17,977 bases of DNA from a virus. Of this stretch, positions 5,126-9,508 are shown piece by piece. The notes under the pieces are model-generated. The model did no database searches, had not been told where the DNA came from, and was given only the letters and a program-made list of their open reading frames with translations. Each line of letters starts with the position of its first letter. Position 1 is the stretch's first letter. The DNA lies in IMG/VR virus record IMGVR_UViG_3300042430_001927. One strand, given 5' to 3'. The translations under genes and the position numbers were made by a program.

Positions 5126-8100
5126 ATGGATTCAGGCAAACTAAATGTGCGCGGCAAATTAGATGCAAGTCAGAACAAGGAGAGTTTGACTCTTCCCAGA
5201 GGAACGATTGCTGAGCGCCCCACCAGCCCCACAGGCGGTATGATTCGTTACAATACTGATCTGGGCTGGATGGAAACCTGGATGGGCAACACATGGCGTC
5301 CAGTGGCTCTCACCGGACCCACTGGATCTGGACCCACAGGTGTGGCTGGTCCCACTGGATACACTGGGCTTACTGGACCAGCTGGTACGGCAGCCCTCAC
5401 AGGTGCCACTGGTGCCACTGGGTTTGGTGCAACAGGTATAACTGGTGCAACAGGTGCCATGGGGCTGACTGGCCCCACAGGCCCAACAGGTGCAATTGGT
5501 GAAACTGGTGTTACAGGTGCCACCGGGTACACTGGAGCAATTGGATTGACTGGCCCCACAGGCCCAACAGGTGCAATTGGTGAAACTGGTGTTACAGGCG
5601 CAACTGGTCCCACCGGAATAATTGGTTTAGATGCCAACAACAGCTTTTCACTAGGTGGTGGCCTACAAACCAGCAGCGGAACAGACAATATTGCCATTGG
5701 TGCTGACAGTTTGCTCTCCAACAATACTGGATTCAATAATATAGCAATTGGTAGTTGCACGTTGCGTGCCAATACCTATGGAGACAAGAATGTTGCAGTA
5801 GGTATTGGGGCGCTGTGTTCAAACACAGAGGGTATGCGAAATGTTGCTGTGGGAATTCTTTCATTAACTGCCAATACCACAGGTAGTAGGAATTCAGCTA
5901 TTGGTGCATATTCTATGCACAGCAATGTCACTGGTTACAGGAATACAGCCGTTGGTGAAGAGGCCTTATTTTCCAATACACGAGGATCTTACAATACTGC
6001 TGTGGGATCCAGCAGCTTGCGTGCCAACACCACTGGTGGCAGCAATACTGCTGTGGGAGTCAACAGCTTGTATGCCAACACCACTGGTGTCAGCAATACT
6101 GCTGTGGGAATCAACAGCTTGTGTGCCAACACCATTGGCATCAGCAATACTGCTGTGGGTGTCAGCAGTTTGTGTGCCAACACCACTGGCATCAACAACA
6201 CCGCTGTGGGAACCAGCAGCTTGCAGTGTAACACCATTGGTGGCAGCAACACCGCTGTGGGTGTCAGCAGCTTGTGTGCCAACACCACTGGTGTCAACAA
6301 TACTGCTGTGGGAGTCAACAGCTTGTGTGCCAACACTTATGGATTCAGCAACACCGCTGTGGGTGTCAGCAGCTTGTGTGCCAACACCACTGGCACCAGC
6401 AATACTGCTGTGGGTGTCAGCAGCTTGCGTGCCAACACCACTGGTGGCAGCAATACTGCTGTGGGTGTCAGCAGTTTGTGTGCCAACACCACTGGCACCA
6501 GCAATACTGCTGTGGGTGTCAGCAGTTTGCAGTGTAACACCATTGGCACCGCCAACACCGCTTTGGGACTCAACAGCTTGCGTTACAACACCACTGGTAC
6601 CAGCAATACTGCTGTGGGTGTCAGCAGTTTGTGTGCCAACACCACTGGTGTCAGCAATACTGCTGTGGGAGTCAGCAGTTTGCAGTGTAACACCATTGGC
6701 ACCAACAATACTGCTGTGGGAGTCAGCAGTTTGCAGTGTAACACCACTGGTGTCAACAATACTGCTGTGGGCGCCAACAGCTTGTGTGCCAACACCATTG
6801 GCGGCAGCAACACCGCTGTGGGTGCCAGCAGTTTGTGTGCCAACACCATTGGCACCAGCAATACTGCTGTGGGAATCAACAGCTTGCGTGCCAACACCAC
6901 TGGTGGCAGCAATACTGCTGTGGGTGTCAGCAGTTTGTATGCCAACACCATTGGCACCAACAATACTGCTGTGGGAGTCAACAGCTTGTATGCCAACACC
7001 ACTGGTGTCAACAATACCTCTGTGGGACTCAACAGCTTGCGTTACAACACCACTGGTACCAGCAATACTGCTGTGGGTGTCAGCAGTTTGTGTGCCAACA
7101 CCACTGGTGTCAGCAATACTGCTGTGGGAGTCAGCAGTTTGCAGTGTAACACCATTGGCACCAACAATACTGCTGTGGGAGTCAGCAGTTTGCAGTGTAA
7201 CACCACTGGTGTCAACAATACTGCTGTGGGCGCCAACAGCTTGTGTGCCAACACCACTGGTGTCAACAATACCGCTGTGGGACTCAACAGCTTGAGTGAC
7301 AACACCATTGGCCCCAACAATACTGCTGTGGGATTCAGCAGCTTGAGTGCCAACACCACTGGTGGCAGCAATACTGCTGTGGGTGTCAGCAGCTTGCAGT
7401 GTAACACCATTGGCACCAGCAATACTGCTGTGGGATTCAGCAGCTTGCGTTACAACACCACAGGCACCAACAATACTGCTGTGGGAGTCAACAGCTTGCG
7501 TACCAACACCATTGGCACCAGCAATACTGCTGTGGGACTCAACAGCTTGCGTGCCAACACCACTGGTGTCAACAATACTGCTGTGGGAGTCAACAGCTTG
7601 TGTACCAACACCATTGGCATCGCCAACACCGCTGTAGGCGCATACAGCTTGCGTGCCAACACCACTGGCGGCAGCAATACTGCTGTGGGTATCAGCAGCT
7701 TGTGTGCCAACACCATTGGCACCAACAATACTGCTGTGGGATTCAGCAGCTTGTGTGCCAACACCACTGGCGGCAGCAATACTGCTGTGGGACTCAACAG
7801 CTCGCGTTACAACACCACTGGCGGCAGCAATACTGCTGTGGGTGTCAGCAGTTTGCGTTACAACACCACTGGCAATTTCAACGTTGCTGTGGGCACTTAT
7901 GCGCTGAATACCATGAATTCAGGCACCACCAGCACTACTGCCAACGTGGCAGTGGGTGGATCAGTTCTTCGTGCGGCTACTACTGCCATAGGCAACACTG
8001 CCATGGGCGCCAGAGCAGCAGCAGCCACCACATCTGGTAAGTATAATACTGTTTTTGGAAGTAGAGCATTATTGGCCAACACTACAGGTGGATATAACAC

Positions 8101-9508
8101 TGCTATTGGTGGTCTTGTATTGTGTTTGTCTAATACTGCGACTAACAGTACCACTGGCAACACAGCCGTTGGTCATATGAGCCTTGCCCAATCTACCTTG
8201 GGCATTTGCAATACAGCTATGGGAAACAGAGCGGGAAATTCCAATACAACTGGTAATGCCAACGTTGCCATTGGTAACAGTGCGCTTCTTACCAACACAA
8301 CAGGTGGCCACAATGTGGCTATTGGTGTTGCAGCACTGTGTATTGCAAATGTGGGTAACACAAGCGCAACGGCTAATGTGGCTGTGGGTTTCAGTAGTCT
8401 AGGCGCCCTTACTACAGGCTTATCAAATGTCGCTGTAGGATCCAGGAGCGGTGCATCTATTACCACAGCTAGCAACAATATCACATTGGGCAATCTAACA
8501 TTGTGCTCCAATACAACCGGAGACAGCAACGTAGCCATCGGACACAATGCACTATCATCCTCCAATACCGGTAACACATCATCCACAGCCAATGTGGCTG
8601 TGGGAGCCAACTCTTTGCAGGCAGTAACGAATGGTAATTCCAATGTGGCTGTGGGATCTAGAGCAGCCTTGGCTATTACTACTGGGTGTGGCAACATCGT
8701 ATTGGGTAATACATCCTTGATCAGCAATACCACCGGATCATTCAATATTGCGGTTGGAACCAATGTGTTGTGTAGCATGAATGCCGCCACCACAAGTGCA
8801 TCTGCTAACATTGCAGTGGGCGCATACAGCCAAAGTTCATCAACCACAGGCAGTGGCAATACCAGTTTGGGTAATTTAACTCTTATTGCTGCAACCACTG
8901 GTTCCTGCAACACTGCTGTTGGTGCATGTGCAGGATGTAATATCACCACTGGCACCAATAATACCTTCCTGGGATACAGGGCGGTAGCAGCCACAATAAC
9001 AGACAGCAACACAATCACTTTGGGCAACAGTGCTATCACCACTATCAGAGCACAAGTTACCAGCATTACTGCACTATCCGATTGTAGAGACAAAACCAAC
9101 ATTGTGGGCATTCCAGTGGGCTTGAACTTCATAAGAGAAGTAAGACCAGTCAAGTTCACCTGGAACATGAGAGATCGTGCTCAGGTGGGCGTGGATGATG
9201 CAGGATTTATTGCACAGGAATTGGATGCACTCAGCACTTGCTGGGGTGTGGAATGGTTGAATCTTGTGAAAAAAGACAATCCCAACAGATTTGAAGCCAC
9301 TCCCAACAGACTGTTTCCAGTAGTGATCCAAGCTATCAAAGATTTGGCCGATAGGTTGGATCAACAAAGTCAGCATCCATTGAAGGTTGCTAAATTCACA
9401 ACTGAAACAAGAGATCAATTGGAAGTGCAAGACGGTATGCTGATCTACAATGTCAATGAATCCAAATTCCAGGGATATGCCAATGGCGCATGGATAAACC
9501 TAGGTTGA
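5126..9508 (+). CDS. Giant repeat-containing fibre or adhesin protein of 1460 aa. The domain order is an N-terminal tail-fibre-like motif, a collagen-like Gly-X-Thr tract, 43 copies of a 17-aa NTAVG repeat, then a C-terminal S74-type self-cleaving chaperone domain.
   Basis: A GGAG Shine-Dalgarno sits 7 nt before the ATG. The N-terminus reads [35 protein letters not shown]. Residues 64-170 are G-P-T/G-x-T triplets. The next ~735 aa follow the repeat N-T-A-V-G-x-x-S-L-x-x-N-T-T-G-x-x, which resembles Hep_Hag/YadA-head and phage fibre beta-repeats. The C-terminus has SDCRDKTNI...[10 protein letters not shown]...AIKDL, the Ser-x4-Lys dyad and the conserved blocks of the Peptidase_S74 intramolecular chaperone domain. 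Confidence 0.8.
5315..5629 (+). repeat. Collagen-like Gly-X-Thr triplet region inside the fibre gene.
   Basis: [24 protein letters not shown]...[17 protein letters not shown] ~69-bp unit coding [21 protein letters not shown] is directly duplicated. Confidence 0.7.
5687..7879 (+). repeat. Tandem array of 43 in-frame 51-bp repeats coding 17-aa units. The first six are diverged at the DNA level. The remaining 37, from 5993 to 7879, are near-identical.
   Basis: The period is exactly 51 nt: 7879-5687+1 = 2193 = 43 x 51. A typical unit is aatactgctgtgggtgtcagcagtttgtgtgccaacaccactggcaccagc, with synonymous positions also conserved. Differences between units fall in a few codons only: C, R, Y, QC or RY before N-T-T/I-G, and two codons at the unit junction. 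Confidence 0.9.
9077..9505 (+). other. C-terminal intramolecular chaperone and self-cleavage domain (Peptidase S74-like) of the fibre protein.
   Basis: Ser (9077) and Lys (9092) are spaced as in the endosialidase chaperone-domain catalytic dyad. The blocks NIxxI, GFIAQE and AIKDL are conserved. Confidence 0.65.

Follow-up and report, generated by a model that had tools for sequence, protein, structure and literature searches.

The 17,977-nt viral contig IMGVR_UViG_3300042430_001927 from IMG/VR (here called the window) carries a gene for a 1,460-residue protein that we read as a homotrimeric virion fiber, most likely a host-adhesion or tail fiber, of a huge phage, assembled from exchangeable modules; the probability of this reading was put at about 0.7. 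From the N to the C terminus, the protein combines a short conserved module, a collagen-like stalk, about 65 repeats with a predicted YadA-head-like fold, a Peptidase_S74 intramolecular chaperone domain, and a second copy of the N-terminal motif. The evidence consists of the domain content, the conservation of catalytic residues, the predicted folds, the synteny with a related contig, and the mosaic structure of the gene. The features of the locus are as follows.

5114-5117, plus strand: Shine-Dalgarno-like GGAG, 8 nt 5' of the fiber ATG (read from the sequence)
5126-9508, plus strand: fiber open reading frame (ORF), 4,383 nt, ATG start, 1,460 aa, 143.2 kDa
5126-5311, plus strand: N-terminal module, aa 1-62, with the motif LPRGTxAxRP...GGMIRYNT...E.W.G..W at aa 23-58
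5312-5635, plus strand: collagen-like Gly-X-Thr tract, aa 63-170, 33 triplets with two register breaks
5636-5683, plus strand: short linker, aa 171-186, from repeat segmentation
5684-7879, plus strand: 43 regular 17-aa repeats, aa 187-918, consensus ending in -x-A-N-T-T-G-x
7880-9025, plus strand: about 22 degenerate repeats, five of them 21-aa variants, aa 919-1300, from segmentation and strands in an AlphaFold2 (AF2) model
9077-9094, plus strand: SDCRDK with the Ser1318/Lys1323 dyad, aa 1318-1323; predicted cleavage at Ser1318
9077-9367, plus strand: Peptidase_S74 (intramolecular chaperone) domain, aa 1318-1414, from Pfam, alignment, model, and Foldseek
9380-9505, plus strand: C-terminal tail with the second copy of the fiber motif, aa 1419-1460, starting FTTETRDQL; core motif at aa 1437-1456
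9515-9544, plus strand: terminator-like 12-bp hairpin directly 3' of the fiber stop, with convergent genes on either side

The ORF, the SDCRDK motif, the collagen tract, the repeats, and the N-terminal block all lie where a first-pass annotation, made by a model from the sequence alone, had placed them. Its observation was correct and its interpretation largely right, with the departures given below.

Modules of the fiber protein

The assignment to virion fibers was supported by three PHROG profiles of virion structural and tail spike families, 23837 (E 1.8e-197), 4636 ("tail spike protein"; E 1.5e-166), and 6002 (E 1.1e-153), whose matches span the repeats and the C-terminal domain. An identical 1,460-aa protein was found on the JGI metagenome contig Ga0453224_0001705, and a megablast search of the whole window against phages gave no match.

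Next, the C-terminal chaperone domain was examined. Pfam identified Peptidase_S74 (PF13884) at aa 1318-1368 with an E-value of 1.2e-7 and 32.4 bits against a cutoff of 22, and the isolated C-terminal region scored 37.1 bits. When the C-terminal regions of 25 sequences were aligned, Ser1318, Arg1321, and Lys1323 were invariant, and the conserved S74 blocks were all intact in the fiber. Among the 120 best homologues, 88 had the pattern S[DS]xRxK, as a rule about 100 residues before the C terminus. The AF2 model of aa 1178-1460 had a pLDDT of 86 to 96 across the S74 domain. When this monomer model was compared with the PDB by Foldseek, the best 11 matches were all intramolecular chaperone (ICA) domains, with the MyRF ICA (7dc3) first, followed by 3gud and 3gw6; the probabilities were 0.72 to 1.00, but the E-values were 0.012 to 3 and the TM-scores 0.2 to 0.67. 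A phmmer search of PDB sequences with the C-terminal 167 aa returned no S74 match, only chance matches to internalins. The first-pass annotation had proposed a self-cleaving type of S74 chaperone with a Ser-x4-Lys dyad, and had named the lack of an S74 match and of a conserved Ser/Lys as what would speak against it; PF13884 above its gathering score and the invariant Ser and Lys in the 25 aligned sequences bear out the S74 assignment, whereas self-cleavage is a prediction.

The S74 domain of the fiber shares with the endosialidase-type chaperones (K1F endoNF, 3gw6 and 3gud; MyRF ICA, 7dc3) the PF13884 family, the S-D-x-R-x-K motif, and a site directly after a repetitive beta shaft. It differs from them in following a YadA-like beta-roll and in not ending the chain: about 45 more residues come after it, and the fiber-motif tail makes up the final 42 (aa 1419-1460). 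The classic partners of S74 domains are triple beta-helices or beta-prisms. A cut at Ser1318 would yield a chain of 126.9 kDa (aa 1-1317) and a fragment of 16.3 kDa. Such self-cleavage is predicted because of the behavior of the S74 family (PMC12143355; Schulz et al. 2010 as cited there). In characterized S74 fibers the domain is released, and cryo-electron microscopy (cryo-EM) gives no density for it (PMC12143355).

The collagen-like stalk named by the first-pass annotation was likewise recovered by Pfam (Collagen, PF01391; E 2.7e-11, 43.5 bits against a cutoff of 27.2, aa 107-163). Twenty-four of the 33 G-x-x triplets at aa 63-170 read G-x-T, the longest unbroken run being 23 triplets, and PDB sequence matches of the tract were to collagens and BclA (1wck).

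Behind the stalk, NTAVG-type repeats fill aa 187-1300 and total about 65 (63 regular-expression matches plus 2 degenerate units). Their spacing is 17 aa in 56 intervals and 21 aa in 5, and one 17-aa interval is split into 5 and 12 by an extra match of the expression. Tandem Repeats Finder reported a 51-nt unit in 36.9 copies (5992-7873), and the AF2 model of aa 1178-1460 placed one strand per 17 residues in its repeat part. A direct repeat of 234 nt (6564-6797 and 7023-7256) is exact, with an offset of 459 nt, or 9 repeat units; it may be a recent higher-order duplication or a fault of short-read assembly, so that the count could shift by multiples of 9. Long ORFs that overlap the fiber gene on both strands (5248-9430; e.g., 5901-7295, plus strand, 464 aa, and 8173-9168, minus strand, 331 aa) were rejected as genes; because the tandem repeat is GC rich, these ORFs and the minus-strand terminator-like calls within the repeats are regarded as artifacts.

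Comparison of the predicted repeat fold with solved structures gave the following matches (structure, PDB entry, score, deviation over aligned residues, percentage).

BpaC head, 7o23: 17.2; 2.1 A over 199 residues; 35%
UspA1, 3pr7: 16.0; 2.4 A over 198 residues; 19%
CbpF, 9u93: 14.1; 2.3 A over 171 residues; 21%
EibD, 2xqh: 12.8; 2.0 A over 108 residues; 25%
YadA, 1p9h: 12.8; 1.7 A over 115 residues; 26%
BoaA, 3s6l: 12.7; 3.2 A over 116 residues; 32%

The models thus support a YadA-head-like parallel beta-roll for the repeats. More than 40 such repeats had been proposed; the predicted fold agrees with that proposal, and the repeat region is larger than estimated there. On the other side, Pfam Hep_Hag (PF05658) matched neither the whole protein (E<=1) nor a 237-aa repeat segment (E<=10), and the period is 17 residues as against 14 in YadA. 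Compared with the YadA-like heads (BpaC, 7o23; UspA1, 3pr7; YadA, 1p9h; BoaA, 3s6l), the fiber has no Hep_Hag match, no signal peptide, and no membrane-anchor family, and it stands in a phage context.

The likeness to adhesin heads raises the question of whether the gene encodes a bacterial trimeric autotransporter adhesin on cellular DNA, a reading that we regard as extremely improbable. The predicted fold is very near that of adhesin heads, and JGI names several of the homologues "trimeric autotransporter adhesin" (the NCBI name is "tail fiber domain-containing protein"). However, the N terminus is hydrophilic with no hydrophobic signal sequence (read from the sequence), a whole-protein Pfam scan (E<=1) returned Collagen, Peptidase_S74, and a weak Nup54 match only, with no membrane-anchor family, and the neighborhood is phage-like. 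Membership in this adhesin class was rejected on the signal peptide, membrane-anchor, and Hep_Hag results together with the S74 chaperone near the C terminus.

For the N-terminal block, a conserved phage-fiber attachment or anchor motif had been proposed. By tblastn, the block was found in 222 phage records, mostly cyanomyoviruses (Kyanoviridae). In the cyanomyovirus carriers it begins proteins of about 300 to 460 aa that have no assigned function, and more than 15 PHROGs, likewise without assigned function, match it at their positions ~24 to 80. When 1.84 billion representative proteins were searched exhaustively with phmmer, 2,189 of them had the module, a unit of about 40 aa (E<=1e-3). Many of these proteins are 3,000 to 5,000 aa long, with up to 15 copies per protein, and copies are also internal or C-terminal; an S74-type motif was present as well in 40 of 149 module-bearing proteins. 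Pfam and NCBIfam scans of both motif peptides gave no family above threshold (below it, DUF2793, DUF7360, and Mtd_N), and a search of viral contigs for loci related through the N terminus confirmed nothing.

A motif profile built from 51 copies matched two structures. The first is the tailspike Gp49 (9d83; E 2.2e-5), at aa 370-404, the C terminus of Gp49; the Gp49 phages (Salmonella, Shigella), with genomes of ~71 kb, are presumably N4-like. The second is CBA120 TSP4-N at aa 54-78, a weak match (E 5e-4 to 9e-4) of 24 residues to the beta-prism part only. In the TSP4 anchor domain (7rej, 7rfo, 7rfv), residues 7 to 42 form a triple beta-helix, after residue 42 each chain contributes a three-stranded sheet to a beta-prism II, and XD1 starts at residue 80, all within the baseplate anchor domain. 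The likeness of the fiber motif to Gp49 and the TSP4 anchor is thus a short, weak profile match, and the fiber lacks both the triple beta-helix that comes before this part of TSP4 and the TSP4 XD domains. Also in contrast to TSP4, the fiber module sits at the C terminus as well, and relatives carry several internal copies. An attachment role is favored by conservation of the block, by its place at the N terminus of cyanomyovirus proteins and of the nearest relatives, and by the profile match to the TSP4 anchor; the occurrence of the same module internally (up to 15 copies) and C-terminally, in this fiber too, speaks against it. Because of these internal and C-terminal copies, the module appears to be a general fiber building block and not specifically an anchor. 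It is best read as a small, probably trimer-forming building block that can anchor a fiber at the N terminus but has wider uses.

Mosaic structure of the gene and the tail behind the chaperone

The proteins closest to the fiber in the N-terminal module (P0244, P0251, P0254, and P0217) are 61 to 64% identical to it and carry the module at the N terminus, with collagen-like sequence behind it. Two of them, P0251 and P0217, have the C-terminal motif at their other end. P0217 (124 aa) is minimal: a short linker joins its N-terminal module to its C-terminal motif, and it has no further parts. P0251 is a 431-aa fiber without repeats or S74 domain, encoded at the corresponding, syntenic position on an ENA contig, L007. 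The window and L007 have a common upstream gene order (Fe-S, SOD, AdoMet decarboxylase [AdoMetDC], HAD, dCMP deaminase, ferritin, and a 214-aa gene) and, downstream, genes of 137 aa and 88 aa in the same order, with 28 to 72% amino acid identity between matched genes. Between these flanks, P0251 shares with the window fiber only the N-terminal module, a collagen tract, and the C-terminal tail. DNA homology extends over 3442-5287 and ends inside the N-terminal module, and similarity returns only in the last 41 residues. Since homology is kept at both ends and lost in the middle, the window fiber is a mosaic: by this comparison, a cassette of YadA-like shaft and S74 domain lies between two gene ends that appear ancestral to the locus.

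On L007, the short fiber gene is followed, with a 4-nt overlap, by a 520-aa Peptidase_S8 (subtilisin-like) gene (11293-12855, plus strand). This gene has no counterpart in the window, whose fiber has the in-frame S74 domain instead.

The first-pass annotation did not include the copy of the N-terminal motif that lies past the S74 domain, at the very C terminus. Over 41 aa, this tail shares 49% identity with the C terminus of P0251 (E 3e-9), and because its similarity is comparable to that of the flanking genes, it appears to be maintained. No motif followed the S74 domain in any of 128 other S74-bearing relatives checked; P0271, a fragment of a diverged S74 protein with 57% identity, has the same order of S74 domain and motif. 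The conserved motif tail past the cleavage site, together with the cassette swap, is the sole unusual point of the fiber.

One explanation of such a tail is that the S74 domain does not cut, or cuts only partly, and that the C-terminal motif stays in place as the distal tip, as it presumably does in P0251. Conservation of the tail between both fibers of the locus and in the S74-bearing P0271 would fit, as would the finding that nothing similar follows the chaperone in the 128 other relatives. We nevertheless consider it quite unlikely: neither the Ser/Lys dyad nor any conserved S74 block is disrupted, the domain is released in characterized S74 fibers with no cryo-EM density (PMC12143355), and the tail could equally work before cleavage. 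Two roles for the tail were weighed, either as part of a two-component, disposable folding nucleus or as the mark of a nonreleasing S74 domain that keeps the ancestral tip, and this pair of readings is put forward tentatively, as possible rather than probable.

Genomic setting and location on the particle

The fiber gene is surrounded by dense auxiliary genes (window positions 1-5071 and 9575-17942; also 828-5091 on a further contig, L003) whose order is conserved with L007. They encode an Fe-SOD, a HesB/IscA-like Fe-S assembly protein, AdoMet decarboxylase, a HAD phosphatase, dCMP deaminase, and a Dps/ferritin. Further neighbors are a PTH2 peptidyl-tRNA hydrolase (matching a PTH2-like PHROG), a PP-loop ATPase (TilS/QueC-like), a malonyl-CoA-decarboxylase-like fragment, a phage-type HNH homing endonuclease, and the following ORF.

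13949-16519, minus strand: MVP-like ORF, 856 aa (Pfam MVP_shoulder, E 3.7e-19; Vault_3, E 3.8e-7)

Among 50,697 phage records, homologues of the MVP-like ORF occurred only in LR756500, LR756501, and LR756503, uncultured phages of 462 to 735 kb, with 37% identity over 95 to 97% of the length. The source of the window is most likely a huge phage, because of these homologues, the phage-type HNH endonuclease, and the PTH2-like PHROG match. A eukaryotic giant-virus origin, for which MVP, PTH2, and collagen genes had made a candidate, was disfavored by the same three matches and by the Shine-Dalgarno-like sequence and hairpin of the fiber gene. As read from the sequence, the GGAG before the fiber ATG indicates translation initiation of the prokaryotic type. 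The hairpin (-21.4 kcal/mol, z -4.64 by RNA folding) was equaled by none of 200 shuffles; the terminator scan did not call it, because the T-run that follows is short.

The genes for AdoMet decarboxylase and the HAD phosphatase are separated by a TnpB/OrfB_IS605-like gene (Cas12f1-like TNB domain; 1610-2878, plus strand). By tblastn, no TnpB was found in L007, where the two flanking genes adjoin, and the TnpB-like gene therefore looks like a recent IS insertion.

Other surface-type genes were seen on the related contigs. About 5 kb upstream of the fiber locus, these contigs encode a collagen-like Gly-x-Thr protein of 329 aa (L007, 942-1931, minus strand) and further fiber-like proteins of 1,057 aa (L007, 1973-5146, minus strand) and 1,088 aa (L003, 828-4094, minus strand), with a faint He_PIG match. 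The fiber may thus be one of a loosely clustered set of surface proteins.

This setting bears on where the fiber sits. The same protein could decorate the capsid or neck as a whisker for environmental adhesion, instead of serving as a receptor-binding fiber of the baseplate or tail. Its gene stands among auxiliary genes (SOD, Fe-S, AdoMetDC, dCMP deaminase, ferritin, and MVP-like) and not in a tail module, and several other collagen-like genes are nearby in the related contig. In small-phage relatives, however, the gene lies within the tail module and is annotated as a tail fiber, and a baseplate anchor domain is among the matches of the motif. Structural genes are dispersed in huge-phage genomes, which makes context weak evidence either way. 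A capsid or neck position is judged unlikely, and a tail or host-adhesion fiber remains the preferred reading.

Proposed assembly and place in the fiber family

From the modules described above, we infer a trimeric state, cleavage, the lengths, a virion location, and a role for each motif copy. Three chains would join at the C terminus through their S74 domains, possibly helped by the extra motif. The S74 domain would trimerize first and nucleate folding of the shaft, and the beta-roll and then the collagen helix would fold toward the N terminus. Ser1318 would then cut, with Lys1323 as base, releasing the 16.3-kDa fragment with its second copy of the beta-prism-type motif and leaving a mature chain of 126.9 kDa. 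The C-terminal tail, inherited from the ancestral fiber at the locus, would most likely act as a trimerization or registration element before cleavage. In the N-terminal module (about 60 aa), the core is predicted to form a three-stranded sheet that packs as a trimeric beta-prism, and this module probably docks or registers the fiber on the particle. Textbook values are about 0.29 nm per collagen residue and about 0.48 nm per beta-roll turn. On this basis, the collagen-like triple helix (about 105 residues) would measure roughly 30 nm, and the shaft, with three rolls of about 65 turns of 17 residues each around the axis, another 30 nm or so. The mature fiber, attached to the particle by its N-terminal module, would thus be roughly 60 nm long.

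Several points weigh against this account. The models are all monomers of moderate confidence (pLDDT 74 to 77), the S74 Foldseek E-values reach 3, and we infer both cleavage and trimerization. The beta-prism nature of the C-terminal tail is suggested by its likeness to the N-terminal motif and by weak PDB profile matches; in the AF2 model a helix runs on through the tail, but confidence there is low and this rendering was not trusted. A tail that is discarded on cleavage and yet conserved is awkward for a simple S74 model. The repeat number may be provisional, as the 234-nt exact repeat makes it sensitive to short-read assembly. Finally, no recognizable tail or baseplate genes are in view around the fiber gene.

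The fiber is a further member of a very large, database-recognized family. In a large protein database, more than 5,200 relatives were found at E<=1e-10, many of them 2,200 to 2,537 aa long, and among proteins sharing the N-terminal module, lengths extend to 5,301 aa and repeat matches to 82. The suggestion that this would be one of the longest fiber shafts therefore did not hold, although its ~65 repeats exceed those of any of the 120 best matches (at most 57 by the same regular expression). The repeats are combined with an S74 domain in Pelagibacter phage HTVC112P (80% coverage, 42% identity), Venkman (gp55), vir515_00039, P-SSM2, and SPO1 (gp2.52), among others; in the first four of these, the proteins are annotated as tail fibers or structural proteins. 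The PHROG 23837/4636/6002 family (HTVC112P, Methylophilales phage Venkman, the Prochlorococcus phage P-SSM2 tail spike, Bacillus phage SPO1, and Limnobacter proteins) has NTAVG-type 17-aa repeats and then S74, as does the fiber, with 31 to 43% identity over 38 to 80% of the latter. Relative to this family, the fiber adds the cyanophage-type N-terminal module and collagen in front and the motif tail behind.

Collagen repeats fused to the C-terminal chaperone of endosialidase have been described in modular fibers of polinton-like viruses, virophages, and phages (PMC12220804). Those collagen and S74 fibers were reported with laminin_G, adenovirus-fiber, or phage-tail-repeat modules, with no YadA-like shaft described, and our literature search found no account of a YadA-like shaft joined to S74. 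The family of fibers with repeats and S74 appears to be little studied experimentally.

Nothing in these findings overturns current understanding. They indicate that the YadA-head-like beta-roll, solved mainly in bacterial adhesins, is a very common fiber shaft of phages and prophages, where it is served by an S74 chaperone. The widespread module of about 40 aa, with its 2,189 representatives, no Pfam family above threshold, and no solved full-length example, merits a structure, and the vault-like shell protein in huge phages is worth a separate study. The two related huge-phage contigs, whose fiber genes have the same position and the same ends but wholly different middles, offer a natural case of module exchange in fiber genes. 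If either reading of the post-S74 tail is true, it would be an undescribed variant of chaperone-assisted fiber assembly, one that arose when a cassette of YadA-like shaft and S74 domain entered an older collagen fiber gene of a huge phage.

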